From Chiloscyllium plagiosum (lineage: Eukaryota): a stretch of 64,000 nucleotides of DNA. The notes beneath the pieces were generated by a model that saw nothing but the letters and a program-made list of their open reading frames with translations, had not been told where the DNA came from and did not search any database. The position numbers and the translations under genes were made by a program. Positions 525-60,146 of the stretch are shown here, one piece after another; the first letter of the stretch is position 1; every line of letters begins with the position of its first letter. The stretch covers positions 4,940,773 through 5,004,772 of the forward strand of contig NC_057754.1 in assembly GCF_004010195.1 (NCBI RefSeq). Reading direction: 5' to 3'.

Positions 525-620
525 TTGCCTGATGAAGGGCATATCCCGAAACGTAAATTCCACTGTTCCTCGAATGCTGCCTGACCTGCTGTGCTTTCCA
601 GCAACAGACTCTTGACACTT
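525..620 (+). mobile_element. Short Penelope-derived repeat with hammerhead core
   Basis: CTGATGA-A-GGG-catat-CCC-GAAACGTA (529-555), followed by the atgctgcctgacctgctgtgctttccagcaaca tract also seen at 23116-23237 and 60040-60146. Confidence 0.75.
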
Positions 621-1934
621 ACAGACTGGATCAGTCACACCTACGTGCTGTGTGCCTTCTTCCATTTAATTAACTTGCTATGTGCAAATGAAAATAAATT
701 AGTCTTCCTGTTTAAACACTAGAAATGTTAGTCCTTAATGAAATATTTTAACATTCATAATAACATAGAAATAGTTTTTTAAGGATCTTTTAAATGGCAC
801 ATGGATCCAAAGTGTAAAATAAATATCACATTTATTTTTCCATGAAACCAAATCGTAATTGCCAAATGTTTGAGTTTTAAAATCATTCTCTTTTTGTGTC
901 CCCTTTTCTTTTGTTTCTTTATCATATTTTGACTCCTAAAAGTATTAATTATCTTTAATGGGAGTTGCGCAAATGTTGAAGTATGCAATAATTTTGCAGG
1001 ACTTTGTTGGCAGTCCAAAATAACATACATTTGAATAGCAATTTTAATGTGACAAAGTATCCCAAGTTGCATCGCAATTTGGGATGGGGAGGAGCAACAG
1101 AACGTGCATCAAATTATCGTTGAGGAAAGACATTTGTTACTACGTAGACCTTTATAATGTTTTGCAGTTAAAATAGGAACATAAGGAGGAGCAGGAGTAG
1201 AACGTCTGCCCCCTCAAGCCTGCTTTGCCATTTAATAAGATCATGGCTGACTTTTTTGTGGACTCAGATCCACTTACCCGTGCTCTCACCATATACCTTA
1301 ATTCCTTCATTGTTAAAAGAAATCTACCTTAGCTTTAAAAATGTTTACTGAAGTAGCATCAACTACTTCACTGGGCAAGGAATTCCATAGATTAATAATC
1401 CTCTGGGTGAAGGAGTTCCTTCTCAATTCAGTCCTAAATCTGGTCCCTTTAATCTTGAGGTTATGCCTTCTTGTCCTAGCTTCACCTGCCAGTGGAAACA
1501 TCCTCTGTAATTCTATCTTATCTATTCTCTTCATAATTTTATATGTTTTGTATAATATCCCCCCTCATTCTTATGAATTGCAATGAATATAATCCTAATC
1601 TACTCAGTCTCTCCTCGTAAGCCAGCCCCCTCAACTCTGGAATCAACTGAGTGAACCTTCTTTGCAGTCCCTCCAGTGCCAGTGCATCCTTTCTTAAGTA
1701 AGGAGAGCAAAACTGCACACAGTACTCGAGGTGTGGCCTCCCCAGCACCTTGTACAGGTGCAACATAACCTATCTGCTTTTAAACTCAGTCCCTTTAGCA
1801 ATGAAGGAAAAATTCCATTTGCCTCCATAATTACTTGTTGTACCTGCAGACCAACCTTCTGTGATTCATGCACAAGGACACCCGGGTCTCTCTGCATTGC
1901 AGCATGCTGCAACTTTCTACCATTCAATTAATAA

Positions 1935-2061
1935 GTGACCTAGAGGGATATGGGCCAAGTGCTGGCAAATAGGACAAAATTAAGTTAGAATATCTGGTTG
2001 GCATGGACGAGTTGGATCGAAGAGTCTGTTTCTGTGCTGTACATCTCTATGACTACGACTA
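1935..2061 (+). mobile_element. 5'-truncated CR1/HER1-type 3' end inserted into the host CR1
   Basis: Matches the 3' ends at 22940-23056 and 57750-57875; tail ctatgactacgacta; candidate TSD TAATAA (1929-1934 / 2062-2067). Confidence 0.8.
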
Positions 2062-2078
2062 TAATAATCCTTTTTACT

Positions 2079-3306
2079 TTAGATGTAGGTTTGCTCACTA
2101 AGCTGAAAGGTTCATTTCCAGACATTTCAATACCTTACTAGGTAACATCTTCAGTGGGCCTCATGCGAAGCAATGCTGAAAATTCCTGCTTTCTATTTAT
2201 ATGTTTGGGTTTCTTTGGGTTGGTGATGTCATTTTTTGTGGTGAAGTCACTTCCTGTTCCTTTTCTCAGGGGGTGGTAAATGGGGTCTAACTCGATGTGT
2301 TTGTTGATCGAATGCCATGCTTCCCTAGGAATTCTCATGCGTGTCTTTGTTTGTGCTGTCCTAGGATGGATGTGTTGTCCCAGTCGAAGTGGTGCCCTTC
2401 CTCATCCATATGTGAGGATACTAGTGAGAGGGGGTCATATCTTTTTGTGGCTAGTTGGTGTTCATGTATCCTGGTGGCTAGTTTTCTGCCTGTTTGTCCA
2501 ATGTAGTGTTTGTTACAGTCCTTGCACGGTATTTTGTAAATGACGTTAGTTTTGCTTTCAATGGTCTTTCAAGTTCATTAGCTGCTGTTTTAGTGTGTTG
2601 GTGGGTTTGTGGGCTACCATGATGCCAAGGGTCTGAGTAGTCTGGCAGTCATTTCTGAGATATCTTTGATGTAGGGGAGAGTGGCTGGGGTTTCTGGATG
2701 TGTTTTGTCTGCTTGTTTGGGTTTGTTGCTGAGAAATCGGCGGACTGTGTTCATTGGGTACCCATCCTTGTTGAATACACGGGATAGATGATTTTCCTCT
2801 GCTCTGCGTAATTCCTCTGTGCTGCAGTGTGTGTTGGCTCATTGAAATTATGTTCTAATGCAGCTTCGTTTGTGGGTGTTGGGATGATTGCTTCTGTAGT
2901 TCAATGTTTGGTCTGTATGTGTTATTTGTCTGTAGCCACTGCTTTGAAGTTCCCCATTGGCTGTCTGCTCTACTGTGACATCTAGGAATGGCAGTCTGCT
3001 GTTGTTTTCCTCCTGTTTAGTGAATTTTATGCCAGTAAGGGTAAACACATTGAGTTAGATCCTATCTACCATCCCCTGAGAAAAGGAACAGGAACTGACT
3101 TCACCACAGGAAATAACATCACCAAACCCAAAGAAACCCAAACATATAAATAGAAAGCAGGAATTTTCAGCATTGCTTCGTTTGAGGCCCACTGAAGATG
3201 TTACCTAGTAAGGTAACGAAACATCTGGAAATGAACCTTTCAGCTCAGCGAGCAAACCTATATCTAAAACATCAACCTGAGCTACAAATCTTCTCAAAAC
3301 TCGCTA
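2079..3306 (-). mobile_element. 5'-truncated Penelope-like element with inverted pseudo-LTR
   Basis: RT C-terminal (KFTKQEENNSRLPFLDV) and GIY-YIG remains on the minus strand; ~2079-2303 is an inverted repeat of ~3043-3269; 13-bp TSD AATCCTTTTTACT (2066-2078 / 3307-3319). Confidence 0.92.
3189..3228 (+). ncRNA. Minimal hammerhead ribozyme motif in the Penelope pLTR (second copy at 2118-2157, minus strand); probably decayed
   Basis: CCA-CTGAAGA-T-GTTACC-tagtaa-GGTAAC-GAAACATC-TGG: core boxes, 6-bp stem II, CCA/TGG stem I. Confidence 0.75.
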
Positions 3307-11080: not shown

Positions 11081-11254
11081 CCCAAACCCACCAAAGGACG
11101 GATGCGGATTCACTGTTTAGAAAATGTGGATAAGGCCTTGCAATTCTTGAAAGAGCAGAAAGTCCATCTAGAAAACATGGGCTCACATGACATTGTGGAT
11201 GGGAACCATCGGCTTACTCTGGGCTTAATATGGACCATCATCCTTCGATTTCAG
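11081..11254 (+). CDS. SPTBN2: Beta-spectrin exon (CH1 domain), 174 bp
   Basis: ttccag|CCC AAA...TTT CAG|gtactt; [30 protein letters not shown]...TIILRFQ. Confidence 0.97.
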
Positions 11255-11689
11255 GTACTTTGTTCAGCAGTTGTCACATCAAGATAGATTTTTTCAATTT
11301 ATTTATTAGTAGTGAATGAAGACACATTCCAATTACATAGGGCATTTGGTCCAACCAGCCCATGCAGATGTTTATGCTACACTAAAGCCTCTTTCCATCT
11401 CTTCTGGTCTAAATTTGCCTTCATAACATCTCCATGTATGATTGTCTAGTTTTGCTTTAAATCAGATTAGCCAGTCTGTATGACTGCAAATTCCAAACTC
11501 TCTCCACATCTGAGTGAAGAAGTTTCCAAATTCTCATATTAAATTTGTTGATGACCATCTTCTATTCATCACCTCTAGTTATACTGTTCCTCACAAAAGG
11601 ACACATTAACTTATGTCAGCAAATACAAGCGTAATAGGTGAACAGAGACAATTATGGGCCAGAATAAAGCCAACCAATGGAGTAATGTG

Positions 11690-12590
11690 GGAAATGTAAA
11701 ATTGTTCATTTTGGAAGAACAATGTTATTTAAATGGAGAGAATCTGCAGAAAGTTGAGATACAACGGGATGTGGGCATATTTATGTATGAAACACACGAA
11801 ACTAGAACACAGGTACAGCATGTAATCAGGAAGGCCAATGAAATGCCTGAGAGCAAGTGAGGATTGCAGTTGCTGGAGAGTCAGAGTCGAAAAGCACAGC
11901 AGGTCAGGCAGCATCCGAGGAGCAGGAGAGTCGACATTTCGGGCATAAGCTCTTCATTAGGAATGAGCTATTTAAAGGAGGTTGGGATATAAGAGTGGGG
12001 AAGTCTTTCTGCAACTGTACAAGGTACTAGTGAAACTACATTTGAAGTACTATGAACTGTTTTGGCCCCCTAATTTAAGGAAAGATAGCATTTCACTGAA
12101 GGCAGTTCAGAAAATGTTCACTTGTATGATCCCTGGTATGGAGGGATTGTCTTATGAGCAAAGCTTGAACGGGTTGGGACTATGTTCATTGGAATTTAGA
12201 AGAATGAGAGATGAGCATATTGGAACGTGAGGAATTTTAAGGGGCTTCACAGGGTAAAAGAGAGGATGTTACCCTCGTGGGAGAGACTAGGTCCAGAGAG
12301 CATAGTCTCAAAATAAAGAGCAATCAATTTAATTCTGAGATGAGGAGGAATTTCTTCTCTCAGTGCATTGCAAGTCTTCGAAACTCCTTGTCACAGAGAA
12401 CCGTGGAGGCAGAATTGTAGTGCATATTTAAGGCTGCAATAGATTCTTTGATCAGTAGGGGAATTAAGGATTTATGGGGAAAGGCAGAAAAGTAGATGTG
12501 AAAAATGTCAGATACGCCATAATCCTATGAATGGTGGAGCAGGTTTGATATTTCAAAAGGCCTACTCCTATTCTTATTTCTTATGGTCTT
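11690..12590 (+). mobile_element. CR1 3' fragment, interrupted at ~11851-11965 by a Penelope-derived short repeat (minus strand)
   Basis: LQLYKVLVKLHLKYYELFW...SLEFRRMRDE; the insert reads CTAATGA-A-GAGC-TTAT-GCCC-GAAATGTC on the minus strand (decayed hammerhead). Confidence 0.8.
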
Positions 12591-12594
12591 ATGA

Positions 12595-12720
12595 CAGAAT
12601 TTTGTATGAGATGAAGCTTACAGGATGTGGGAAATAGGAGGCAAGCCAAGAGAACTTTGGAATAACCAAGTCTGGAGGAAACAAAGGCAAAAGTGAATGA
12701 TTCAGCAGAACTTGGACTAA
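12595..12720 (-). mobile_element. L2-clade LINE fragment
   Basis: FAFVSSRLGYSKVLLACL...KLHLIQNS resembles the L2 ORF2 motif AFVTSRLDYCN..L...KLQLIQNSAAR. Confidence 0.55.
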
Positions 12721-13256
12721 ACAACAAATAAGAAGCAGGACAGACTCTTATATTGTGGAAGTGATTTTCTAGAGGCAGCAAAGGGTTACAGTCTATTTCA
12801 CGCAGAGATTCCATGCATATATTGTGATCATCCTTCATTGTTCTTTATCAGAAATATCTATGTCAAGAACATGTTTAAATCAAGAACCCCCACAACATTT
12901 TCCCTGCTTTATTGGAGGAATTTAATAATGCAGCTGTTTGCTTTACCTTATGCTTGTTTTCCTTGTTTTGAATAAACTGGGTGTAGCTGCCCCTTGACTG
13001 AAAAACTACCATAATTTCAGTCTCTGTCTCTCTCTCTCACTCTTTTTGCCCTCATCACAAAATTAAAAATCTCTACTGAAGGCACTGACTCACAAGGCAT
13101 TTGCAGTTACCACATAAGGGCAAATGATCTTTCCAAAGTGAGTCAGTGTTTGAGGTTATCTTAAAGCCTTAATAATGATTTGCTTTGTTTGCAGTAAGTT
13201 ACACAGTCCTTGGTCATGCGTATGTATTTTACTTATCAAGGCTTTTGTTTCAAAAG

Positions 13257-13348
13257 ATCCAGGATATCAGTGTTGAAACAGAGGATAACAAGGAAAAGAA
13301 ATCTGCCAAAGATGCACTTCTGCTCTGGTGCCAAATGAAGACAGCAGG
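13257..13348 (+). CDS. SPTBN2: Beta-spectrin exon (CH1-CH2 linker), 92 bp
   Basis: caaaag|ATC CAG...GCA GG|gtaagc; [30 protein letters not shown](G). Confidence 0.97.
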
Positions 13349-13687
13349 GTAAGCAGAATTGGAAAATTGCCAAAGGGAATTAAGTGACAAGTCCTGCAAA
13401 GTACACATATGGATGAAAAACAGACAGTGCTTGAAATGCATAGAGTCTAATCAACATCTGACCAAGAAATCATTGTTTAGCGTACATCATTTTATTAAAG
13501 TCAGTGTTTATAAATGTCTACTTTGAATGCTCTTCTGTGTTTGAAGCTGAGGCCCTCTGTTTGAATATAACAAGCCTTCACTGTATCAATTATGCTACAC
13601 TTGCTCAGTGGGTGGTTGACTGTCGCTGGATAGTCAAGTGTTCCTCCCTGTACAAAATACCATTTATATCAGAAATTCACTAACAAA

Positions 13688-14010
13688 GGCTTCGCAGTGC
13701 CAGGGACCTGGTTTCGATTCCAGCTTGGGTGACCGTCTGTGTGGAACTTGTACATTGTCCCTGTGTCTGCGTGGGTTTTTCCTGGGTGCTTTGGTTTCCT
13801 CCCACAGTTCAAAGATGCGCAGGTTAAGATGGATTGGCCATGCTATATTGCCCATAGAATCCAAGAATGTGCAGACTAGATGGGTTAGTCATGGGAAATG
13901 CACAATTACAGCGATAGTCTAGGAGTGTGGTTCTGGGTGGGAGGCTGTGTGGAGGGTCGGTGTGGACTTGATTGGCCAAATGGCCTTCTTTCACTCTATA
14001 GGAATTCTAT
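13688..14010 (+). mobile_element. HE1-like V-SINE (5'-truncated)
   Basis: B-box-like gtttcgattcc; central ggattggccatgctatattgccc; homologous to 45871-46175. Confidence 0.8.
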
Positions 14011-14056
14011 TGTTCCACAAAGTATGTTATGCAAGTTACTGAGTAAGTTGCATATT

Positions 14057-14320
14057 TTTAAGGTTTGAGGAGAAAGATTTTAAAAAGACATGAGGGGCAT
14101 TTTTATTATACAGAGAGTCGTTCATGTGTGGAATGAACTTTCAGAGGAAGTGGTGGATACGGACAACATTTAAAAAACATTTAGATAAGTATGTGAATAA
14201 GAAATGTTTGGAGGAATATGGGCCAAGTGCAGGCATGTGGGACCATATTAGTTTGTGATATGGTCGGCATGGACTGGTTGGACCGAAGAGTCTGTTTCTG
14301 TGTTGTATGATTCTATGACG
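14057..14320 (+). mobile_element. CR1 3' end
   Basis: Ends ggcatggactggttggaccgaagagtctgtttctgtgttgtatgattctatga; same family as 46360-46855 and 56725-56930. Confidence 0.8.
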
Positions 14321-14894
14321 ACTGTCACATAGAAACTCAAGCTCTAAAGACCTCACACAGGGTGACGGAACCCAATCTCTTTGTCAGTGTGCTCATTCAG
14401 TGCATGGTCTTGAAATCCCCCACTCTAGGGAAAAGACATCTGCTTTTCGCCTTATCTACAGCCCTCATGAGTTAAGGTCAGCCCTTAGCTTCCTATGTTC
14501 CAGTGAAAAAAGCCCAGGCTATCCAGTCTCTGCCTATAACTCAAAACAGTTGATGTTCTGGAGACATTTCTGATAGCGCCTCCCCATTGTCCACCAATTG
14601 CTGGTTAGCTGGATTCTTGTGCTTTTCATAATAGATTTTGAACAGGCAATTGTGAAAACATTTTGGTTCTCTCTCTTCGTCCATTCCTAACCTGACCCCA
14701 GCTCTACGAAACATATGCTTGCTCTTTCACTTGAATGCCTCCAGTCAGGTGACGAGATTGAATTTATTACAGTTATTGATCAGAGAATCTATTCATTGCC
14801 TATTCAGGTACCTGCTCAGAGAGCATCCCACATTATCTACTGTGTGAAAAAGTGCTTTTAGCTTGTCATTTCTCAATTCTTTCTTTCTTCTTAC

Positions 14895-14950
14895 CCCCAC
14901 CCCACCCACTCACCATCACTCACCACCCATCATCATCACCACCACCATCA
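14895..14950. repeat. Low-complexity (CAC/CAT)n tract
   Basis: cccacccacccactcaccatcactcaccacccatcatcatcaccaccaccatca. Confidence 0.8.
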
Positions 14951-34929: not shown

Positions 34930-34942
34930 ATATTTGTTTCAG

Positions 34943-45583: not shown

Positions 45584-45808
45584 ATGCTGGAGAATCAGAT
45601 GAAAGTCCGACAGAAGGAGGTCGAAGAATTGAAGCTTCAAGCACAGGCACTTGGACAAGAGGATACTAACATTGTAGAGGTAGATTCCAAACGAAAGAGG
45701 GTAGAGGAACGATTCCAGGAGCTACTAAAACCTATTGAAGAAAGAAGGAGGAATCTCATGGCATCCAAAGAGGGCCATCAATTCAACAGGGATTTGGAGG
45801 ATGAAGTT
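45584..45808 (+). CDS. SPTBN2: Beta-spectrin exon, 225 bp
   Basis: ttgaag|ATG CTG...GAA GTT|gtaagt; MLENQMKVRQKEVEEL...HQFNRDLEDEV. Confidence 0.95.
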
Positions 45809-45870
45809 GTAAGTTCCCTTCTTAATATTTATCTTTAGCAGGCAATTTCTACTTGTACGTTCTTCTCACT

Positions 45871-46175
45871 TTGGTGGGCCGCACAGTGGTTAGCACTGTT
45901 GTGTCACAGCGCCAGAGACCCGGGTTCAATTCCCGCCTCAGGCGACTGACTGTGTGGAGTTTGCACATTCTCCCCGTGTCTGCGTGGGTTTTCTCCGGGT
46001 GCTCCGGTTTCCTCCCACAGTCCAAAGATGTGCAGGCCAGGTGAATTGGCCATGCTAAATTGCCCGTAGTGTTAGGTAAGGGGTAAATGTAGGGGTATGG
46101 GTGGGTTGCGCTTCGGCGGGTCGGTGTGGACTTGTTGGGCCGAATGGCCTGTTTCCACACTGTAATGTAATCTAA
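45871..46175 (+). mobile_element. HE1-like V-SINE, young copy
   Basis: tRNA-like head with B box GGTTCAATTCC (45923-45933); CpGs retained; tail taatgtaatctaa; candidate TSD TCACT (45866-45870 / 46176-46180). Confidence 0.92.
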
Positions 46176-46359
46176 TCACTACATGTCCGAAAGAATTAGG
46201 CAGATTTCTTGATGTCTCTGTGCTTCGAGTAGTGTGCAGACAAAAACTGAATGGTCATGGCCCTGTTTAATTTTCCATTATTAATTTACAATTAGTGGGC
46301 TTCTGTTGCCATGAGAAGGGGTAGAATGGCTCCCCTCTTCTTCCACTCCTTGTTTGACT

Positions 46360-46855
46360 TTTGAGTATAGGTGTTAGGATGTTGAGGTTATGCAGGGCAT
46401 TGGTGAGGCCTCTTCTGGAGTACAGCATCCAGTTCTGGTCTCCCTGTTAGGAAAGGATATTATTAAGCTAGAAAGGGTTCAGAATAGATTTACTAGGATG
46501 TTGCTGGGAATGGAGGGTTTGCATTATAAGGACAGGCTGGATTGGCTGGGACTTCCTTCACTGGAGTGTAGGTGGTTGAGGTTTGATCTTATAGAGGTTT
46601 ATGAAATAATGAGGGCTATAGATAAGGTGAATGGCAGGTGTATTTTCCCTCGGATGGGGGATTTCACGACTAGGGGACCTGCTTTTAAGCTGAGAGAAGA
46701 AAGATTTTAAAAAGACGGGCAATTTTTTTTACACAGAGAGTGGTTCGTGTGTGAAATGAACGTCCAGAGGAAGTGGTGGATGTGGGTACAGCTATAATGT
46801 TTAAAAGACATTTGGATCAGTACATGAATAAGAAATATTTGGAGGGAAATGGGCC
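46360..46855 (+). mobile_element. CR1 3' fragment
   Basis: KDIIKLERVQNRFTRML...SLECRWLRFDLIEVYEIM. Confidence 0.88.
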
Positions 46856-48087
46856 ATTGGTGGATGATATTTCTTTTGTCTTCTGGAGTCAGAACTTATT
46901 GGATCCTGCTCATGGCGGGTAGGTTGTCAATTAACAGGCAGTGTTCAAGCTTCCAGGATTGAGAGAAAGAAAGGCAGCACCCACTCAGGATCTTCCTTCT
47001 TCTGCATCTCTTCTGTTTCTGCTCTCCTATCGTAGAGGGAAACAGTTACCTAATACACAAAAGAGGTGTAGTTAGCTAATCACATGATTCCTTCTCATCA
47101 ACTGATCAGTTAACCAAACCTCGGCATAAATTGATCAATAATTTAGACATCATGGCTAGAGAATTATCGATTTAGCCAAGGTCACTTGTTCAAAACGATT
47201 ATCTCTAATACTGGCTTGTTCCACAAACGTTTCAATATGCAGGTGCTGTCTGGATGTTTTGTGAGTAGGTCAGGAGCTAAGTCCTTCACATTCCTCTGTG
47301 CTGATTGTCTTTGATGGGTTGTGCTAAACACCATGAGTCAGTATTTTAGGGTACAACCATACAAATGTTCAGCCATTTTAAAAGTTTTTTTACGAACTGC
47401 TGCTATTCAGTCTTTCAAAACTCAACTCGTGGTTTCATCCCAATGAATAATTTAAGTCTTTTTAGATACAAACTACGAGTTTTGTTACAGACCTTTTTAG
47501 ATTATCACTTCTCCCTGCTCAATATTTCCCCTCTCCGTTGCACCCAGGTAATCCAAAACATACACGAGAAGTAATTCTGCCCCAACTAAGTTGCAGTCTC
47601 AATCCTCATCCAGTTGGCAATTCTTCACCTGAGTACAAATATCTATTCAATCCTGAAAGGCATTACAGAGGAACCTAACACTGTTGTCAGCCATGCATCT
47701 ATACCTTCACCAGGAATGAATGGATAATCAATCAGCAGTGAATCACAAATCACTTCTTTCCTCTTTCAATCCTAGGATGGCTGAGAGCAGTTACTACCAA
47801 ATAAACTGAGAATAGTTAACAAAGAAAATTTTGCTTTGATGTAGCACTGCAGAATGTCTCAGTGAATTGTTTCTGAAATTAAGTCACTGTTGATATTTAG
47901 GTAAACCCTGCAGCAGCTTTGTGATATACCACCCTTAAAACAGCAATAAATATAACAAATTACCAGTGAAGTCTTTTTTTCTTAATGTTAGTTGGGTAGG
48001 AAATTTTAGCTAATAATCCAGGGAAATATCTTTGCAGGAAGTTTTTTCTATGACCACAAGGAATGGCAAATATCTAATTTGGAGCAC

Positions 48088-48245
48088 ACAGAAAAAGAAA
48101 TTGCTTGAGCAACTCAGCAGGTCTGGCAGCATCTGTGAAGAGATATTAGGGTTAATTATTTTGCGTCCAGTCTAGTTCTGAGTTTCTCCAGCAATTTCTG
48201 TTTTTGTGTGTTTCAGATCTCTAGCATCCACAGTTCTTTGTTTTA
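48088..48245. mobile_element. Degenerate fold-back Penelope-derived short element
   Basis: aactcagcaggtctggcagcatctgtg arm and inverted tccagcaatttctgtttttg arm; same family as 59420-59553. Confidence 0.65.
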
Positions 48246-48634
48246 ATTCAGTTTGGAAGATGGCACTTTGGGCATTGCCGGGGTACTGCATCAGGAGTAT
48301 TACTTTGAATTGGGTATTCAAATACCACAGTCAAGGTTTAAGCCCATTATGGTCTTACTCAAAGGCCTAAAGCAAGCTGTTGAGATCACTAAACCAAGGG
48401 ATTGATCCTAGAACCTTCTTGGTTACAAGTGAAGCATCTATATGTGGACACAATGGGAGAGATTAATTTGTTTCACTACTAATGTTACTGCAACGGCCCT
48501 TTACATAAAAGCATGGAAAATGAGACATTTTCTGTTTTTTAAAAGATTTAGAATCTTGTCAGTTCAAAGAAAAGTTAACCCAACATTTATTGTTCTGATT
48601 TAGTTTCTCTATCTCTCTCTATCTCTATCTCTAG

Positions 48635-48724
48635 CTATGGATAAATGAACGGATGCCACTGGCAACCTCAACAGATCATGGCAACAACCTGCCAACTGTG
48701 CAGCTACTCATTAAAAAGAACCAG
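48635..48724 (+). CDS. SPTBN2: Beta-spectrin exon, 90 bp
   Basis: ctctag|CTA TGG...AAC CAG|gtaaga; [30 protein letters not shown]. Confidence 0.96.
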
Positions 48725-49129
48725 GTAAGATGAGAACTAGATATGGGCCATCTAATTGTACATATGTTTTGACAGGGTGCTAAAAGAGTCTCTAAACAGC
48801 TGCTTCTATTCATGTGTTTTGGACTAATAGAGTGTCAAATACTAGCTGTAATGTGTCTTGTCTTGGAACCGTTTGACCAGCTGTTAGATAGAAACTCTAC
48901 TGTACTATCTTTGCTCAGTGAAGCATTCAGATTACAATTATTCTCACCTTGCTATTAGTCAGAATTAAATGTCTAAGCTATTCTACTTTTCTGTTGCATC
49001 AGCCAGTCAGAATGTTAGAACTTGTTCACGAGGACAGAGCAAGTGTGATTTACATTAACTAATAATGAGAGACTGATATCAAGAGTATTGCAAGATGCAG
49101 ATTCAGTCATTCACTCTTCTTCTTTGGGA

Positions 49130-50950
49130 AACGTAGAACAGTCCAGAATAGTACAGGCCCTTCGTCCCTTGATATCGTGCCGACCTTTTATCCTTCTCTA
49201 AGATCAAACTAACCAATATACTCTTCATTTTACTATCATCCATGTGCGTCATCTTAAAATTATGACCCCTCATGATAGCCATTTCCATCCTGGGAAAAAA
49301 ATCTCTGACTGTCCACTCTATCTATGCTTCTCATCATCTTGTACACCTCTCGGCGTCCTTTGCCCTGCTTCCTCTGTTGTCCTGTTCGCTCCCCCTCCCC
49401 CCAGTCGAAGCAAAACACTCAGAGACACTGTTGTTTTACCTCCTTCATCTTTATTCCAGGCCCTGGTAGGAGTGAGAATGATCGCCCATGTGCACAGGGA
49501 CATGAGTTCTCAGTTTCTCTGGAAGAGCAGTTTTTCACTGAGCTATATAGTCATTTTACAGGGAGGAGCATCCAGCTAAGGCAACATGCATATTGATTGG
49601 ATGACGGTTACAATCAATGAGTGTCAATAGTAAAGTCATCTGCTGTTACACAATTAATAACGAGCTTCACATAATGAATACTTTTCACCTTATTAAGTGA
49701 TGTTACATACTGAATGCTACCTCATATTGTTAAATGCTGTACTTAATTAATGCTTTTCCACCTTGTTAACCCATTATCCTTGCCTTCAGCACCACATTGT
49801 TAACTGTAGATGCTTATCTGATCTGAGTCATGCTCAGCTGAATCTCGTTTCACAAAACTCAGAACATAACTCTTTCCTGCCTGCTTATATCCTATACACG
49901 TTCTCAGCTCAACCTTTCTTTATAAGACATGCCCTCCAGTCCAGGCAGCATCCTGGTAAATCTCCTCTGCACACTCTCTAAAGCTTCCACATTCTTCCTG
50001 TGAGGCGAGCAGAACTGAACACAATATTTCAAGTGTAGTCTAACCAGAGCTTTATAGAGCTGCAGCATAACCTCGCGGCTCTTAAATTCAATCCTCCTGC
50101 TAATGAAAGCCAACACAGCATATGCCTTCTTAACAACCCTATCAACTTGGGTGGCAACTTTGAGGGATCTATGGATGTAGACTCCACAATCCCTCTGTCC
50201 CTCCACACCGCCAAGAGTCCTGCCTTTAACCTTGTAATCTACATTCAAATTCAACCTTCCAAAATGAATCACTTTGTACTTTTCCAGGTTGAACTTCATT
50301 GCCACTTATTTGCCCAGCTCTGCATCCTGTCAATCTCCTGTTGCAACCTATCACAGTCCTCCACACTATGCATTACTCCACTAATCTTCGTGTCATTGGC
50401 AAATTTACTAACCCATCCTTCCACTTCTTCATCGAAGTCATTTATAAAAATCACAAGGAGCAGTGGTCCCAGAACAGATCCCTGTGGAACACCACTAGTC
50501 ACTGAGCTCCAGGCTGAATACTTTCCATCTGCTACCCCTCTCTGACTTCTATGGGCCAGCCAATTCTATATCCACACAGCCAAATTTCCCTGTATCCCAT
50601 GCCTCCTTACTTTCTGAATGAGCCTACCATGGGGAACCTTATCAGACGCCTTGCTAAAATCAAAATACACCATATCCAGTGCTCTACCCTCATCAATGTG
50701 TTTTGTCACATCCTCAAAGAATTCATAAGGCTTGTGAGGCATGACTTGTCCCTCACAAAGCCATGCTGACTATCTCTAATCAAACTATGCTTTTCAAAAT
50801 AATCATAAATCCCACCATCGACATTAAACTGGCAGGTCTGTAATTCCCAGGATTATCCCTATTCCCTTTCTTGAGCAAGGGAATAATATTTGCCACCCTC
50901 CAATCATCTGGTACTACTCCAATGGACAGTGAGGACATAAAGATCATCGC
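49130..50950 (-). mobile_element. CR1 LINE, 5'-truncated, interrupted by unrelated DNA at ~49351-49903
   Basis: SGVPQGSVLGPLLLVIFIND, KFANDTK, LVRLHLKYCVQF; collinear with 41055-42365. Confidence 0.9.
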
Positions 50951-51816
50951 CAAACTTCTGCGTGTCTGCTGATAGTGTAGTAGCTATTAAGCAGCTACCA
51001 TTTCAACTCCTATGATAGGTACATGGGTAAATGTAGGAATTGTAGAAAAGCAATAATGTGTTGAACAACTTTCTAGCTCAGGTATTCTGTTATCTGCCTT
51101 AATTGTCCACTCTCTACCGTGGTGTAGTGTTTACAGAATGCACAGCAGCAAGTCACCATGGAATCTTTTGACAACATCTCCAAAACTTGAAACTTCCAAT
51201 ATTTTGAAGGAATAGGGCAGTAGTTGCATGAATCAAATCCAGGTTCCCCTGTAAGTTACATCCTCATTTGAGACATCGATTGGCATTCCTTCATTGTAGC
51301 TGGCTCATGCTCCTGGAACTCCTTCTCTCTGCAGTACCTTCCCCACATGAAATGGCAGCTTTCAGATTTTAAAACAAAAAGCCATCGATGAATGTCATCT
51401 TGCCAGTGACTCCCATGTCCCAAAATGAATACAAAAGAAAACAAAAAATGTCTTATTGCTTATTGTCAGATTTGGTCCTTCTCTTGGTTAGATTGAAATG
51501 TAATAAGGATCATAACTTGAATATAATAAGCAGGAAGAAAATCAAACTCTTATATAAGCTCTGAACAACAATGTGGCAAGTTTTGCATTAGAACTAGCAA
51601 GAGTTAACAACATCAAGGTCGAAAACTGAGCTACTATGATATTTTCAGTACACTGTTGCTGCTACTCAGTTGGTAAGAATGAAGTTAGTCATTCAGAATA
51701 TTGTTTTAACATAGTGATGTGATATCTATCCATGAATATATATGGTTAAGATAATTATGAGATAAAGACTCAATTAAGCAAAGTATTTTTTTAAAACATT
51801 CAACTTTGATCCTTAG

Positions 51817-52095
51817 ACCCTACAGAAGGAGATTCAGGGTCACCAGCCTCGAATTGATGATATTGCAGACCGTGGGGAGACAATGGCCAAAGCAGGGCGC
51901 ATAGATTCTGAGGTGCTGCGAGCCCGCCTGGGAGACCTACAGGAGGTGTGGAAGGCATTAATCGAGGAGACAGACAAACGCAGTGCCCGCCTGGAGGAGT
52001 CACAGAATGCTCAGCAGTTCTATTTTGATGCAGCTGAAGCTGAGGCATGGATGGGGGAGCAGGAACTTCATATGATGTCAGAAGAGAGGGCCAAG
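51817..52095 (+). CDS. SPTBN2: Beta-spectrin exon, 279 bp
   Basis: ccttag|ACC CTA...GCC AAG|gtacta; TLQKEIQGHQPRIDDI...QQFYFDAAEAEAWMGEQELHMMSEERAK. Confidence 0.95.
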
Positions 52096-52659
52096 GTACT
52101 AAATAAGTATCATATTGGTTAAGAGATGGAGGAAAGTTTAGGCAGAGCAATTTGCAATAAAAAAGAACCATGTCTGAATTTTCTTTTTATAAGTAAAGTT
52201 TCTAACCTCCATGGAAACCAGCAAAATCAAGTTCCCTTCTCTGCTTCTTCATTATGTCGCCCACAGGTAGTGTTCTGAAATGGGTCTGTTTAAAGGAGCT
52301 GAGGTCTTAACTTTAGACCAGCGTGAAAATACACTGGTGATAGCAAAATTGAATGGCTTTCCCTGCTAACAACTAAATTGAAAATCTTGTGTCTAAATAT
52401 GGGTCAGATAATGGGTGTTAGATTTGGAGTGGATAGTGGTGATGGTGTCTGAAAGTCCCCCTGAAAATATTAGATTATTTAATGAACCCCAGCAGTTAAG
52501 CTATGGTATATTCTAAATGTTTATATTAGTTTTGCAATCTCCTTTCTGTTTCAGCTTTCATACAAAATAGCATATCGTGCACTCAGTTTTCTGTTTTACA
52601 ATGGTGTTGGATTTGTGAACTATTTAACTCTCTTTCACTATGTTGTTATGTCTGAAAAG

Positions 52660-52790
52660 GATGAACAGAGTGCAATGGCAATGGTAAAGAAGCACCAGGT
52701 GGTAGAGCAATCACTGGAGGATTATGCGCAGACAATTCACCAACTCTCCAACCTGAGCAGGAATCTAGTAACCGGCACTCATCCTGAGAG
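52660..52790 (+). CDS. SPTBN2: Beta-spectrin exon, 131 bp
   Basis: gaaaag|GAT GAA...GAG AG|gtcagt; DEQSAMAMVKKHQVVEQSLEDYAQTIHQLS...THPE(S). Confidence 0.94.
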
Positions 52791-53291
52791 GTCAGTGTCA
52801 ACATTATGGAATAGGCACTCCCTAAGGTGTTTCCAGTTAGGTGCTGGTGTACACTAGAAGTCCTGCTACAAATGGTCAAAAGCTGTCAGCATGCTGTTGA
52901 ATATTAGCCTGTATCTTTTTCCCTCTCTATGAGGGGAGGGTGATAGTGGTGGTGTTGCCTTCAGGATGGAGTCCTAGAGGCTTATGTACCCTTTGATCTG
53001 CAGGTTCAGAGCACAAGCTCTTCACTGGTATTATTAGGGGTCTCTGTTGGGACCCCTAACAATTCTCACAATTGGGGTAAAAAAAACAACTGAGATGAGA
53101 GGCTCCAGAGTGCCCCTAAGCTGGCTTTTTTCAAATGGTAAAGTTGGGTTTTGTGTTATCTGGCTGGAGTCCTTGGGAATTCTAAACCTCTGATAAATTG
53201 AAGCTCAGCCATTATTCTTTCTCCTCTGTCCTTGAAATTCTTGAAACACAGCTATAGTTCTTTCCCTAATTTTTTTTTGTGGATTGTACAG

Positions 53292-53496
53292 CGACCGGAT
53301 TACTCTAAGACAGTCGCAGGTGGATAAGTTGTACGCTGGATTGAAAGACCTGGCAGAGGAGAGACGGGAAAAGCTACAGGAGGGTTTACGGCTCTGCCAA
53401 CTCAAACGGGAGGTAGATGACCTCGAGCAGTGGATTGCAGAACGGGAGATTGTGGCTGGTTCCCATGAGCTAGGCCAGGATTATGAACATGTCACT
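53292..53496 (+). CDS. SPTBN2: Beta-spectrin exon, 205 bp
   Basis: gtacag|C GAC...GTC ACT|gtgagt; [25 protein letters not shown]...[13 protein letters not shown]. Confidence 0.96.
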
Positions 53497-54479
53497 GTGA
53501 GTAATAGGGTGCCTTTATTTTTCCCCTCTTGCTAGTTATGGAAGGACAGTTTTCCTGTGACCCCTTCCCTTGCTGTTGTGGTTTAGCTTAAAATAGTGGT
53601 TAGGATTGACTTGAGATAACTTACGTTTTACAAAGTTTCCTCTTGACACTTATTTTACAAGATTGCAGAATCACAGTAGCATAATCTGATGTTTTTCCAA
53701 CTTCTCCTCGACATCTTGCTCCTAAATTTCAAAACGCATCCATTCTTCAACGTACCGCACACAGATATCAGTAGTCCACTTGGTGTAATGTGCAACCATA
53801 AAAGGCATCTCTGTTATGCCCAGTTGTCCTCATCTCACATCTACTGTGCTGGAAATGCCTATTGGATTATGGAAAGAGTCAGAAACCTGACTGATTTTTA
53901 TTCCTCTTCTAAATGTCAGAAGCAGTAAGACTATTTGTGATCCTTTCACTACTTTTCTAGCTTAGGAAAACTTCAAATCTTCTGGCTTGTGCATACTCAG
54001 TGGACAAAGTGGAATCCTTTCATTGAGTTTCTGTGCAACGTTCATAAATACGTAAATGGATGAACATCACAAGACCATATGACATAGGAGTGGAAATAAG
54101 GCCATTAGATCTATCGAGTCCACTCCGCCATTCAATCGTGGCTGATGGGTATTTCAACTCCATTTACCCGCACTCACCCCGTAGCCTTTAATTTCTTAAA
54201 AACCTCAGCTAACATAGCAGAGAAATCTTGTTCACATGTAGAGTTGTTTATTTACTGATATCGGCAGCTAGTATATCCATACGTGGGATGTTGACCGAGA
54301 GATAATAATAATTGGGCTTTATACTAATTTGCTAGGGAGAGAATTCAGTTGAAGGGAAATTTAATAAATCAAAAAGAAACTAGCTTCAGGCTAGTGAAGA
54401 GGTGAGCAATAATGAACATGTGACAGTAAGGGATAGAACACATATGCGGCAGGAATTAGAACCTAAGTAAATAATGATG

Positions 54480-55935
54480 GTAAAATGTCAACACTTAAGG
54501 CTCTTAATTTGAAAACACACAACATTTGTAGCAAGATAAATGGATTGACATAACAAAAATAAATTCATATCACTTTAAAGATATTACAGAGATTTGGTTA
54601 CAGGGTGATCAAGACTGGGAACTCAATATTCAAGAGTATTCAAGGTTTCAGAAGAATAGGCTAAAAGGAACAAAATGCTGGGTAATGTTAGAAAAAAAGG
54701 AACATACAGGTGACCATTAAGTAGAAACTCAATTTGATTCACCATGTAAATACAGTGGCTGTAAGAGCAGGTCAGAACCTAGGAATACTGTGGTGAGTAA
54801 CTCACCTCCTGCCTCCCAAAGCCTGTTCACCACCTACAAAGCACACGCCAGGAGTGTGATGGAATACTCACCATTCACCTGGATGAGTGTACTCAAGAAG
54901 CTTAACACCATCCAGATCAAAGATGCACACTTCATTAGCACCATATAAGCATCAACTCCCTCTACCACCAATGCTCAGTAGCAGCAGTGTATGTAATCGA
55001 CAAGATGCACTGCAGAAATTAACCAAAAGTCCTCAGACAGCACAACCATTTCCATCTAGAAAGACAAGGACAGCAAATACAAGGGAATGCTACCTCTTGC
55101 AAGTTCCTCTCCGGGCCATTCACCATTCTGACTTGGAAATATTGACTTGAACCATTCCTTCAGTGTTGCTGGGTCACAGCCCTGGATCTCCCCTCAAATG
55201 GCATTGTAGGTCTACCTGCAGCACATGGACTGCAGCAGTTCAAGAAGGTAGTTCACCACCACCTTATCAAGAGTAACTAGAGACGAACAATAAACACTGG
55301 CCAGCCAGAATGGCCACGTCCCATGAAGGAATGAAAGAAGATCAGCTTGGTGCTGAGAAGTGATAAAGGTGCAACAGATTGTGATGTGAAATCAATTTAG
55401 ATGGAAATAAGGAATAGCAAGGGAAGTGACTTCTCTGTGGGCCTCTATAGAGTTGCCTCACTTAGGACAAAGTGTAAACTGAGAAAAAGTGGAGTTATTG
55501 AAGGGGGGCACTATAATTGACATGGGTAATTTTAATCTTTTTATTGAATGAACAATCAGATGGGCATGGAAGACGAATTTAACCTACTTGGGAACAGGCT
55601 ATTTTAGATCTAGTTATAGGCCATGGAATAGAATTAATGGGAGATCTTGTAATTAAAGATCCTCTCGGGGCTAGCAATCACAATGTGGTAAAATTTAAAA
55701 TTCAGTTTGAGGAAGACTAACTCTGGTCTCAAACCAGTGACCTCAAGCTAAATAAGGGCAATTGTAGAGGTGGCCGAAAAAAAGTTGCCTAAAACTGGTG
55801 GGAAGATAAATTAAGACAAATGTCAGAGCAGTAGGGAATTAGTGAAAATGATGAGGCACCTCGATTGACAAGGCAGTCAAGGAAAGTATCCAATCAAAAA
55901 TTAAGGCATTAAAAATAGGAAAATCTGTTGGTAGG
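54480..55935 (+). mobile_element. Old CR1 endonuclease-region remnant with a nested LINE 3' fragment (~54745-55335)
   Basis: Resembles the reverse complement of 4650-5420 (atgggtaattttaatct = MGNFN; gcaatcacaatgtggtaaaattt); the nested piece matches 16545-17000. Confidence 0.6.
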
Positions 55936-56039
55936 TTAGAAGATTGAGATTGTTTTTTAAGAAATCTAGCAACAGTCATGATCCTGTTCATTGGCTTCCT
56001 CTTGCTCCTATTTCTTATGTTCTGCCATTCTTCATACAG

Positions 56040-56414
56040 ATGTTGCGAGATAAATTTCGTGAGTTTGCTCGGGATACCAGTAACATTGGACAAGAGCGTG
56101 TGGACTCTGTGAATCACATGGCTGATGAGCAGATTGACTTGGGTCATTCTGAGAATGCCACCATTGCTGAGTGGAAGGATGGATTGAACGAGGCCTGGGC
56201 TGACCTGCTGGAGCTCATTGACACCCGGACGCAGATGTTGGCTGCTTCGTACGAGCTGCATAGCTTCTACCATGATGCTAGGGAGACGCTTGACCGCATT
56301 CAAGAGAAAGAAAAACAGCTGCCTGAGGAAGTTGGTCGTGACCTAAAGACAGTAGAGAGAATGCATCGGATGCACACTACATATGAACATGACATACAGG
56401 CGCTAAGCACACAG
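56040..56414 (+). CDS. SPTBN2: Beta-spectrin exon (repeats 14-15, ankyrin-binding region), 375 bp
   Basis: atacag|ATG TTG...ACA CAG|gtaagt; [13 protein letters not shown]...[24 protein letters not shown]...DIQALSTQ. Confidence 0.97.
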
Positions 56415-56724
56415 GTAAGTGCAGAAAATGCTTGCTCTTTTCATGACTTTGTTGTTTTTTGCCTCTCCTTCCTTCCTGTCTTGCCTGCTTTATTCTCACT
56501 TTTGTTCTTCTTTATCGTTCCTTTTTTCAGTATAATAATGTTTTTTCTTTTCAAGTACAAGCTATCTCTCTGTCAGTTTGCTACTTTTAAAAAGTTCTAT
56601 TTCCACAGATTTTACAAGGGTGAAAAAGAAAAGGATTATGTAATTATGATGGCATATTGAAGGATGTCTTAAGCAACTTCTCTTGTAACCTTTATTCCTT
56701 CATTGCAAACTGTTTTTATTCATT

Positions 56725-59045
56725 GAGTCGTACAGCATGGACACTTTGGTTCAACCAGTCCATGCCAACGATAATCCCAAATTAAACGAATCTCATCTGC
56801 CTGTGCTTAGCCCATATCCCTCCGAACATTTCTTATTCCCGTACTTACCTAAATGTCTGTTAAATGTTGTAACTGTACCTGCAGCCACCACCTCCTCTGG
56901 AAGTTCATTGCACACATGAACCACACTGGAAAAAAAAAGTTTTGGATGTGAACATAGGAAGTATAGTTAGTAAGTTTGTAGATGACACCAAAATTGGAGG
57001 TGTAGTCAATAGCGAAGAAGGTTACTTCAGAGTACAAGAAGACCTTGATCAGTTGGGCCAAGGGGCCGAGGAGTGGCAGATGGAGCTTAATTTAGATAAA
57101 TGTGAGGTGCTGTATTTTGGAAAGGCAAATCAGAGCAGGACTTATTCACTTAATGGGAAGGTCCTGGAGATCGTTGCTGAACAAAGAGTGCAGGTGCTTA
57201 GTTCCTTGAAAGTGGAGTAGCAGATAGTAGGATAGTGAAGAAGGTATTTGGTATGCTTTCCTTTATTGGACAGAGCATTGAGTATAGAAATTGAAATGTC
57301 ATGTTGCGGCTGTGCAGGACAATTTTGGAATATTGTATGCAATTCTGGTTTCCTTCCTATCGGAAAGATGTTGTGAAACCTGAAAGGGTTCAGAAAATAT
57401 TTATGAGGATGTTGCCAAGGTTGGAGGATTTGAGCTACAGGGAGATGCTAAATAGGCTGGGACTATTTTCCCTGGAGCATCGGAGGCTGAGGGGACCTTA
57501 CAGAGGTTTATAAAATCATGAGGGACATGGATAGGGTAAATAGCCAAGGTCTTTTCGCTGGGGTGGGGGACTCCAGACCTAGAGGGCATAGTTTTAGGGT
57601 GAGAGGGGAAAGGTTTAAAAGGGACCTAAGGGGCAACTTTTTCACACAGAGAATGGCGCATGTATGGAATGAGCTGCCAGAGGAAGTGGTGGAGGCTGAT
57701 ACAATGACAACATTTAAAAGGCATCTGGATGGGTATATGAATATGAAGGATTTGTAGAGATATGGGCGAAGTGCTGGTAAATGGGACTAAATTAGGTTAG
57801 GGTATCTGCTCAGCATGGACGAGTTGGACCGAAGGATCTCTTTCTGTGCTGTACATCTCTGTGACTCTATGATTCCTTGTCTTTTTTAAATCTTTCTCCT
57901 TCTACCTTCAAGGTATGTGCCATAGTCTTGAAATCTCCCACTCTAGGGGAAAAAGCACCTGCTTTTCACCTTTCTATAGCATTCATGTTTTTATAAACCT
58001 CTGTACGGTCACCCAACAACCTCCTACACTCACTGAAAAATATTCCAGCCTATCCAGCCTCTCCTTATAACTCAAACCCTCCATTTGCAGCAACATCCTG
58101 GTAAATCTTTTCTGAACCTTAATAATATCCTTCCTTTAACAGGATGACCAAACTGGACACAGTACTCCAGAATCTCTCTATTCTATAACACTACCCAAAA
58201 CCCTACTTTTAATTGTACAAGTTCAGCCCTTGTTTGTTTTACCAAAATGTAATACCACACATAATCCAAATTAAACTCCATCTGCCACTCTTCAGCCCAA
58301 TTCATCAAGATTTCTTGTAATATTAGACAAACTTCTTTACTATCCACTATACCACCAATTTTGGTGTCACCCTGAAACTTGCTAACTATGCCTTCTCCAT
58401 ATTCTCATCTAAATCACTTATATAAATAATAAATAAAAGTGGACCCAGCACCAATCCTGTGGAACACTGCTAGTCACAGGCCTCCAGTTGAAAAACAGCC
58501 CTCTGTCATCACTGTGTCCTCTGCTGTTAAGCTAATTCTGTATCCAGTTGGCAAGTTCACCCTGAATCTCATCTGATCTAGTGACCTAACTTTACAGATT
58601 AGTCTACTGCTCTGCCTTCATCAATATTCTTGGTTACTTATTCAAAAAACTCAATCAAGTTTGTGAGACACGATTTCCCTCACTGAAAACCATGCTGACT
58701 ATCCATAATCATTCCTTGTCTCTCCAAATACAAATAAGCCTTATTTTTCAGAATCGCTTCCAACAACTTACCCACCCCCAAAGTCAGACTTACACACCTA
58801 TAGTTCCCAGGCTTCTTACATCCCTTTTTAAACAAAGGCACAATATTAGCCACTCTCTTCAGTCACCCAGCACTTCATCCATGATTTAGATGATACAAAT
58901 ATTTCTGCAAGAGGCCCTGCAGTTTCCTTCCCAACTTCCCACAACATTCTGGGATACACTAGATCAGGAGATTTTCCACCTTTTATATTTTCTAAGATCT
59001 CTAGCACTTCCTCTTCTGTAATCTGATCTGTTTTCAAAACATTGA
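56725..59045 (-). mobile_element. CR1 LINE remnant (host), split by a nested opposite-strand CR1
   Basis: 3' end at 56725-56940, continuing at 57876-59045 (KSPD..YPRMLWEVGKETAGPLAEIF). Confidence 0.85.
56943..57875 (+). mobile_element. CR1/HER1-type LINE, 5'-truncated, nested
   Basis: SKFVDDTKIGG...QEDLDQL...LEYCMQFW...FFTQRMAHVWNELP; tail gtacatctctgtgactctatgattc; same family as 37240-38491. Confidence 0.92.
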
Positions 59046-59047
59046 TT

Positions 59048-59415
59048 TTTAAAAAAATATTCTTTCATGGGATGTGGGCATCACTAGAAAGCATAATATT
59101 TGTTGCCAATCCCTAATTGTCCTTAAACTAAGTAACTTACTGTACCACTTCAGAGGACATTTAAGAGTCAGCCACATTGCTGTGGATCTGAAGTCACATA
59201 TAGGCCATACTGTGTAAGGTTTGCAAATTTCATTGCCTAAAGGACATGTAGATGGGTGTCTATGGTAATTGATGCTCGTTGTCATGGTGATTAGCTTTAA
59301 GGTTTTATTAATTATTAATTGAGTTTGTATTTCCCCAGCGGCTGTGGTAGGATTTCAACCAAAGGCCCCCGGTATTAGTCTGAGACTCTGGATCACTAGA
59401 CAGTGACATTACCGT
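59048..59415 (-). mobile_element. SINE family B copy
   Basis: Reverse complement of the 62785-63090 type (ttaagagtcagccacattgctgtggatctgaagtcaca). Confidence 0.75.
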
Positions 59416-59419
59416 AATA

Positions 59420-59553
59420 GTTCTGAGGAAGTGTCACTCAACCCGAAATATTAACTCTGATTTCTCTCCACAGATGCTACCAGATCTGTTGAGCTTTTCC
59501 AGCAATTTCTGTTTTTGTTTCTGATTTACAGCATCTGCCATTCTTTTGGTTTT
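59420..59553 (+). mobile_element. Penelope-derived short repeat with decayed hammerhead core
   Basis: CTGAGGA-A-GTGTC-actc-AACCC-GAAATATTA (59423-59453), then cagatgctaccagatctgttgagcttttccagca. Confidence 0.7.
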
Positions 59554-59650
59554 TACATTACCAAGACACTTCTGTCTTTGCCCCCATTGAAGCTAATAAC
59601 CAAGTTGTTGCTGTAGTTTTCTCTGTAACTAGTTTCTTTGTATAACACAG

Positions 59651-59895
59651 GTGAAGCAGGTCCAAGATGATGCTGCCAGGCTGCGGTCGGCCTATGCTGG
59701 CGAGAAGGCTGAGGACATACAGCGACATGAGGATACTGTTGTGGAGGCATGGAATGCCCTCCTTAATGCCAGCAAAGGACGCAAACAACTTCTATCAGAC
59801 ACAGTTGAAAAATTCCGCTTCTTTAATCTTGTACGGGCCCTGATGCTGTGGATGGATGACGTCAACAGACAAATGGATACCCAGGAGAAACCGAG
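59651..59895 (+). CDS. SPTBN2: Beta-spectrin exon, 245 bp
   Basis: acacag|GTG AAG...CCG AG|gtagtc; VKQVQDDAARLRSAYAGEKAEDI...MDTQEKP(R). Confidence 0.96.
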
Positions 59896-60039
59896 GTAGT
59901 CTTACTAACAGCTGTATTCAAGGGAAGGGTGCATAGCTTAAGTTTCTTTTGGAAAATCAGGCTGTGAGCTCCCAACGTGAGAGAAGGGATTTATTTGGTG
60001 AGATTAGAATCAGGCTTTTCGGTCCATGTGCCGTTGGCT

Positions 60040-60146
60040 ACGTTTTGCGATTCTCTTGCTCCTTTGATGCTGCCTGACCTGCTGTGTTTTTCCAGCAACA
60101 CATTTTTCGGCTCTGACCTCCAGCATCTGCAGTCCTCACTTTCTCC
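60040..60146 (+). mobile_element. Penelope-derived short repeat (same family as 23057-23237)
   Basis: gatgctgcctgacctgctgtgtttttccagcaacacatttt..gctctga.ctccagcatctgcagtcctcactttctcc is the reverse complement of 23057-23155. Confidence 0.85.

Follow-up and report, generated by a model that had tools for sequence, protein, structure and literature searches.

Minimal hammerhead ribozymes are a known component of the pseudo-long terminal repeats (pLTRs) of metazoan Penelope-like retrotransposons (Cervera and de la Pena 2014, PMC4209133; for this and all other works cited, our statements refer to the accessible parts of the text). Published examples were inactive as monomers and only weakly active as dimers (PMC4209133; PMC6765202). 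Here, we have analyzed a 64,000-nucleotide stretch of the genome of the shark Chiloscyllium plagiosum (NCBI RefSeq assembly GCF_004010195.1, contig NC_057754.1, positions 4,940,773 to 5,004,772 of the forward strand), hereafter the window, in which motifs of this kind recur in and around a gene for non-erythrocytic beta-spectrin. They share with the published ones a type I layout, an extra base between positions 9 and 10.1, a G10.1-C11.1 pair, a palindrome at positions 15-16 and the presence of several covarying families in one genome, as well as a predominance of single copies from truncated elements accompanied by some close opposite-strand pairs. Two differences are that no shark is named in the accessible text of PMC4209133 and that the abundance here, for which there is no genome count, seems far above the 4,000-9,000 motifs of coelacanth and Xenopus. 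Full-text searches, which did not reach most subscription articles, the repeat databases or some supplements, returned nothing about hammerheads of Penelope elements in sharks. The known association of hammerheads with Penelope is here extended to sharks.

The insertion unit of endonuclease-positive Penelope/Poseidon elements has been described in several studies (Arkhipova 2013, PMC3846280; Craig 2021, PMC8557442; Frangieh 2024, PMC11167929), and the window agrees with it in 5' truncation, an inverted pLTR, a tail at one end, target duplication and head-to-head palindromes. In one of the four stem-II types distinguished below (families A to D), namely family B, an open reading frame (ORF) starts at hammerhead stem II as in anole Poseidon (PMC11167929), whereas in families A, C and D only the module from hammerhead to tail is left, its 5' end lying at the hammerhead or close to it. 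In the anole element, the enzyme initiates reverse transcription inside the ORF, at two sites 111-118 nt from its start; the tail corresponds to the sequence separating these sites, and hammerhead cleavage needed protein and was dispensable for insertion (PMC11167929). In Drosophila, Penelope RNA starts inside the pLTR (PMC2377424). Non-LTR retrozymes (Cervera and de la Pena 2020, PMC7229834; Li et al. 2026, bioRxiv 10.64898/2026.07.22.740005) are also short and non-coding, carry a type I hammerhead, are linked to Penelope pLTRs and are known from the one chondrichthyan sampled; however, they form head-to-tail tandem units of 150-450 bp with mostly canonical hammerheads, whereas the copies described here are single or head-to-head and carry minimal ones. 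The present families may be among the chondrichthyan retrozymes of the latter work. In addition, a dispersed nurse-shark repeat of about 100 bp named NSRE1 was reported in 2006 at 17 copies per 170 kb and with no protein match (PMC1513397). The accessible text of that paper names neither a ribozyme nor a Penelope link, and a literature search for NSRE1 found no tie to ribozymes.

Hammerhead motifs and their Penelope context

We consider it probable that the motifs in the window are insertions of the hammerhead-bearing end module (pLTR) of endonuclease-positive Penelope-like retrotransposons. The reverse transcriptase (RT) and endonuclease of Penelope are the likely agents of insertion, and the copies are likely inert at this locus. 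A first-pass annotation of the sequence had named eight sites (529+, 2154-, 3192+, 11960-, 23172+, 43179-, 43195+ and 59423+), and all eight are present with the stem II sequences given for them. It had described them as a recurring CTGANGA core followed by a self-complementary stem II and GAAA, and had assigned them to Penelope-type minimal hammerheads. The assignment agrees with the sequence features and with the junction of family B to a Penelope ORF; the observation is correct and of a kind known since 2014 (PMC4209133). The pattern itself is borne out for the full motif and not for the heptamer alone, which is not enriched (38 occurrences in the window versus a shuffle mean of 47.6).

This lack of enrichment of the heptamer, together with an Rfam search of the window in which no hammerhead model matched with an E value of 1 or less (its output was otherwise microRNA look-alikes of the hairpin at 23057 and one weak match), would suit a reading of the motifs as chance matches, while the paired insertions, which are palindromes with target duplications, might be miniature inverted-repeat transposable elements of DNA transposons. 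However, the core with a Watson-Crick stem II of at least 3 bp and GAAA occurs six times in the window against 0.25 in shuffles (maximum 2 in 100 shuffles), a more than 20-fold excess in which two of the six matches (27261-, 61378-) look like chance. With a stem of at least 5 bp there are two matches against 0.03, and under a stricter descriptor that requires the extra base three against 0.14 (maximum 2 in 200 shuffles), all of these counts including repeat copies, which are not independent events. Moreover, stems covary between unrelated families, the arms of paired insertions are unequal in length, single arms exist and family B couples the motif to a Penelope ORF. Both readings are largely refuted by the enrichment, the Penelope protein matches and the core comparison, and we regard them as next to negligible.

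Among the eight named copies, the CUGANGA core is exact in six, the exceptions being 11960- (CTAATGA) and 23172+ (CCGAAGA, the CC of which derives from the inverted arm). The extra base between 9 and 10.1 is found in all eight, and the G10.1-C11.1 pair, a G-C directly before GAAA, in six. Helix III is a Watson-Crick palindrome in half of them (ACGT at 529 and 23172, AGCT at 43179- and ATAT at 59423) and is broken in the other half (ATGT twice, ACAT and AACG), three of these lying one CpG-type change from ACGT and one being broken otherwise. The annotation had expected ACGT or AGCT wherever copies are intact, which applies to three sites and not to the ATAT at 59423 or the four broken ones; the intactness of the copies had been overstated, as no named copy is free of defects (0/8). 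In monomer folding, hammerhead helices I and II formed the best fold for 3192 only. The whole-window CpG observed/expected ratio of 0.28 fits a CpG-type decay of the hammerheads.

The stems covary between families, which nonetheless have in common the G10.1-C11.1 pair, the extra base and the palindrome. In stem II, pairs 2-4 are G-C/G-C/C-G in A, U-A/U-A/A-U in B (stem II GTTACC/GGTAAC) and G-C/A-U/G-C in C (stem II GGAGC/GCTCC), and the first stem I pair also differs by family (C-G, A-U, U-A). This covariation was read from the four stem-II types with no formal statistic, MAFFT having misaligned B so that its alignments were unfit for pair counts. Families A (GGGC) and D (GGTC) share one body at about 74% identity, so that the "at least four families" proposed earlier stand as four covarying stem-II types but correspond to three lineages.

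Family B provides the link to Penelope. A 5'-truncated Penelope-like insertion (2079..3306, minus strand), flanked by a 13-bp target duplication (2066-2078 / 3307-3319), contains a broken ORF (2326..3042, minus) with stops and frameshifts, in which protein and Pfam matches cover the C-terminal part of the RT, the thumb and a GIY-YIG endonuclease. This ORF is 76% identical over 238 aa to P0124 of Stegostoma tigrinum (E 3e-114), and its Pfam GIY-YIG match (E 2.7e-4) is below the curated cut-off. DNA comparison placed on one side of it a pLTR without a tail (2079..2302, minus; core at 2154, stem II base broken) and on the other an inverted pLTR with a tail of about 38 nt (3043..3306, plus; core at 3192, stem II of 7 bp, helix III ACAT); the two arms are 91.6% identical over 226 nt. 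In the 3192 arm, an ATG at A9, the start of stem II, opens 36 codons up to the tail end. Such an anatomy, an ORF between a pLTR and an inverted pLTR with a tail on one side and a duplicated target, is that of the published unit (PMC3846280; PMC8557442) and supports a Penelope origin. Family B is an ordinary truncated Penelope-like element and not a non-coding short element, an outcome that the first-pass annotation had itself named as speaking against its description of these copies.

A second Penelope/Poseidon-type ORF fragment (1..345, minus), comprising the thumb end, linker and GIY-YIG start, runs off the window edge; it is 84-89% identical in tblastn to P0126 of Chiloscyllium punctatum (GIY-YIG E 0.025) and shares 72% DNA identity with 2443-2686. 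The closest proteins of these remains are those of Stegostoma, Chiloscyllium and Hemiscyllium, 16 of 19 candidates being relatives. No cysteine motif was found between the thumb and GIY in family B or P0124, which suggests the Penelope/Poseidon clade for family B. Both remains fit, on their domain order, the endonuclease-positive Penelope/Poseidon clade (RT followed by a C-terminal GIY-YIG, with no zinc-finger linker). P0122 was rejected as a relative: it is an unrelated repetitive protein, and its query ORF (2561-2854) lay mostly in the wrong frame. An ESM Atlas search returned scores of 0.81 only. At the protein level, the C-termini of the predicted shark proteins P0123, P0126 and P0127 past GIY-YIG hold peptides like TEDVT..GDET, which read as a translated B-like hammerhead with stem II changed. 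Two annotated host isoforms, P0125 (MAP3K7, Chiloscyllium) and P0137 (CUEDC2, Hemiscyllium), end in a Penelope GIY-YIG piece and may represent exonised elements or annotation artefacts.

Short arms and a proposed mode of insertion

Profile and BLAST searches identified 10 insertions of families A, C and D in the window, with arms of 65-140 nt: A or A-like at 523, 11851, 23057, 34099 and 60048, D or D-like at 15302, 25277, 48058 and 59414, and C at 43062. Four of the 10 are head-to-head pairs, whose arms meet inside the core or leave 15-18 nt between cores. The family A pair (23057..23237) lies in the 3' end of a LINE-like (long interspersed nuclear element) repeat and forms a perfect hairpin (58/58 bp) with its joint inside the core, a tail on the left arm only and an exact 14-bp target duplication (23043-23056 / 23238-23251). 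The family C pair (43062..43264; cores 43179- and 43195+, 15 nt apart) likewise has a left-arm-only tail and an exact 15-bp duplication (43047-43061 / 43265-43279). In both, one arm is longer than the other, like the family B tail. Among single arms, the family D copy at 59414..59554 (plus; core at 59423, stem I of 4 bp, U-C mismatch in stem II, helix III ATAT, N17=U at 59452) is flanked by an 8-bp duplication (59406-59413 / 59555-59562), and its head begins 4 nt before C3 and 5 nt after the duplication.

Taken together, an inverted pLTR, a one-sided tail and a target duplication, the features of the Penelope insertion unit, are all found in B, in the 23057 insertion of A and in C, and the duplication also in D at 59414. 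Exact duplications thus occur at four insertions (13, 14, 15 and 8 bp), while in random pairs of 25-nt windows 13 bp was reached in 1/1000 and 8 bp in 9/1000. The same outward-facing arms, the one-sided tails (A, C) and the 8-15 bp duplications constitute an insertion signature that A, C and D share with B.

The remaining copies are more decayed. They comprise a family A arm at 523..606 (plus; core at 529, stem II of 3 bp, ACGT, N17=A at 555, stem I lost), another with a tail and an internal deletion at 11851..11965 (minus; core CTAATGA, G5 lost), a decayed family D body with no hammerhead left at 15302..15358 (minus; profile E 2.7e-7), an old D-like head-to-head pair at 25277..25509 (cores 25402- and 25421+, 18 nt apart; profile E 1.8e-4 and 4e-4), the plus arm of which retains a 5-bp stem II (AGGTC/GACCT), a decayed A/D-related arm at 34099..34211 (minus), a family D head-to-head pair at 48058..48244, in which an internal deletion of the right arm removes most of the hammerhead, and a family A arm with a tail at 60048..60146 (plus) that starts at C17, the predicted cut site. 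The stretch given in the first-pass annotation ends with the last of these, an arm that has no core, and its list of eight sites had missed the pair at 25277-25509 and the arms at 48058-48244, 34099-34211 and 15302-15358.

Under the origin that we favor, from pLTR modules of Penelope-like elements, the RNA would start a few bases upstream of the hammerhead, a 5' end deduced from DNA, and reverse transcription would begin internally, by analogy with the anole element, at either of two positions some 65-125 nt past the core. Run-off from the internal start to the RNA 5' end would give arms 65-140 nt long, and a head-to-head hairpin with one tail would result where a pair of these cDNAs had opposite strands as primers. 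The hammerhead would be under selection in the parent elements, where its activity would require dimerization or the protein of the element; in the present copies it has decayed, with many of the changes at CpG sites. Should the short arms be products of such run-off, the RNA start and both RT start sites could be mapped from their two ends for several Penelope families together.

Several results weigh against this origin. No arm of A, C or D extends far upstream of the core, unlike in B, and the parent elements of these families are putative. The 16 Penelope-type proteins match the window only at 1-345 and 2141-3099, with no ORF beside A, C or D. No target duplication was found for 523, 11851, 25277, 34099, 48058 or 60048, and none convincing for 15302. 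The 60048 arm starts at the predicted cut site and two others inside the core, starts that a simple run-off model does not predict, and the short arm of 23057 stops 14-19 nt before the other family A short ends. At other loci, loose sequence ends behind 60146 have no common continuation (agreement 0.34-0.45) and hence reveal no linked ORF there.

The last result comes from four sequencing runs, two of DNA and two of RNA, compared with positions 59100-60600. Matches were obtained for 117,390 and 116,767 contigs of the two DNA runs and for 3,855 reads of one RNA run, a polyA single-cell library, and for 0 reads of the second RNA run (X22). Almost all of them lie on the D and A arms and on a single repeat unrelated to these, and they suggest that the short-arm families are very abundant, depth being no measure of copy number. 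Upstream of 60048, loose ends of copies elsewhere show the family A hammerhead intact, with core, stem II and ACGT (759 RNA reads, 807 and 620 contigs; agreement 0.65-0.77). Family A copies at other loci stop sharply at 60146 and have unrelated flanks, and this unshared sequence defines a sharp family A 3' end. Opposite-strand joints at the D head also recur at other loci, and both junctions of the D copy at 59414..59554 were found in a second species, so that this insertion predates the species split. Two further sets of loose ends were set aside: those at 60101-60106 and 59535, considered as second start sites, mix sequence variants with true ends, and a pile at 59419, considered as a sharp 5' end, has a weak common upstream sequence in both DNA runs.

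These data bear on a different explanation, namely that A, C and D are dedicated non-autonomous elements using borrowed Penelope enzymes: SINE-like (short interspersed nuclear element) or retrozyme-like masters, about 130 nt long, in which a hammerhead head is joined to a recognition end for the Penelope RT. The first-pass annotation had proposed such elements, with family B among them. The very high number of matching contigs on three repeats of a 1.5-kb stretch, the sharp 3' end at 60146 with heads at the hammerhead, the lack of an adjoining ORF at all 10 A/C/D insertions, the similar protein-less repeat of nurse shark (PMC1513397) and the published non-autonomous Penelope-like derivatives (PMC8557442; bioRxiv 10.64898/2026.07.22.740005) would agree with it. 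Nevertheless, tandem arrays, the hallmark of retrozymes, are absent, no head-to-tail array being seen in the repeat and profile searches of the window, and in A and D the hammerhead is followed by a common short frame (MLPDLL.FSSN), open to the tail end in the 23057 arm, as expected of an ORF start, a weak hint from few codons. The insertion products would look alike under both models, and arm starts at the hammerhead or close to it suit a short master as well as short cDNAs copied from the 5' end of autonomous transcripts. As to the template, the shared frame leans weakly to an autonomous mRNA and the lack of an ORF-linked copy to a short master. We judge dedicated non-autonomous elements to be the less likely source, though one with an appreciable chance, and retain autonomous Penelope-like parents.

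The resemblance of family A to NSRE1 may give an old shark repeat an identity. The 40-base NSRE1 probe contains GAA-ACGT-C, and its best matches in the window are four family A arms with 30, 27, 27 and 25 of 40 positions; this comparison used the printed probe only, and with 30 shuffle maxima of 22-25 the lowest match is within the shuffle range and the other three are above it. No window match above shuffle level was found for the NSRE2 probe. On this likeness, family A probably identifies the hitherto unexplained NSRE1. We tentatively suggest, as a possibility rather than an expectation, that carpet sharks carry superabundant Penelope-dependent retroelements of about 130 nt (family A = NSRE1), the 5' ends of which mark the Penelope RNA start just ahead of the hammerhead and which form a genomic record of "strong-stop"-like cDNAs and two-ended priming. 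If true, unresolved steps of Penelope integration could be read from very many natural events.

Three details of individual arms may be added. In the right D arm at 48165-48180, the first half of the core is followed directly by sequence from a later occurrence of the same five bases, an internal deletion at a short repeat. At 59414-59418, the five bases that separate the duplication from the D head match part of the duplication in reverse complement, as would result from copying of the target at the joining step. The start of the family A arm at C17 (60048-60049), a single case, would fit the copying of a cleaved RNA.

The host gene and neighboring repeats

Exon mapping revealed about 27 coding exons of non-erythrocytic beta-spectrin in the window (11081..63460, plus), and all repeat arms fall outside them. 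The first mapped exon starts at residue 101 of the chicken protein, and the sites at 529, 2154 and 3192 are upstream of it. The placement of all motifs inside one gene, as first annotated, therefore holds for those within the mapped exon range, while these three are probably intronic.

It had also been proposed that sense-oriented copies cut the spectrin pre-mRNA, which they might do as mutual dimers or in trans with transcripts of the same family, lowering or shaping expression. Five of the named cores are on the sense strand; the copy at 59423 has retained its core together with 4 bp of stem I and a helix III that is self-complementary, with no pairing to mask it, and family A and D sequences occur in RNA reads, so that partners in trans exist. 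However, each sense copy is damaged. At 529 stem I is lost; at 3192 the palindrome is lost, and the arm pairs base for base with the 2154 arm; 23172 has neither U4 nor stem I and lies in the tip of a hairpin predicted at -149 kcal/mol (z -18.5); at 43195 helix III is broken, and the arm is predicted to be folded shut with its own inverted arm (z -12); and 59423 has the U-C mismatch in stem II. Among 25 pairings of sense copies, a stem I of 4 bp with a helix III of 3-4 bp arises only with 59423, the stem II of which is broken, as core donor, and none of the sense copies is in tandem with another of its own family. The listing for 59100-60600 contained no pile of molecule ends, and the 759 family A reads cross the predicted cut site, a weak test because these reads derive from other loci, RNA ends are not visible in this library and spectrin exon depth is 1-2. 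Single-arm insertions, with three sense and three antisense, are too few for a depletion test. Considering that all copies are damaged, that three of the five sense copies are predicted to fold shut and that minimal hammerheads need a partner and cleave poorly (PMC4209133; PMC6765202), cutting of the spectrin pre-mRNA is unlikely, and we hold its effect on expression to be very improbable; some residual trans cleavage by 59423 may occur. Nothing found points to a role in spectrin expression. The perfect hairpins add long double-stranded RNA to introns.

Apart from the hammerhead, the sense D arm contains a pyrimidine run ending in CAG directly before an ATG (59461-59478) and a second CAG-ending run (59505-59530), both 120-175 nt upstream of a real splice acceptor near 59650; these are candidate cryptic acceptors, the RNA depth at the locus being low.

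Beyond the shark data, a motif pattern scan of viral contigs gave 0 matches, and metagenome scans, which gave 0 and later 81 loci, were discounted since all loci were at most 38 nt and taken as chance. Other repeats in the window include an abundant short repeat unrelated to the hammerhead families (59130-59252, 62985-63022 and 15869-15900), a long LINE remnant of higher GC content that includes endonuclease and RT domains (6177-9633, plus) and many CR1/L2-like LINE 3' fragments across the window.

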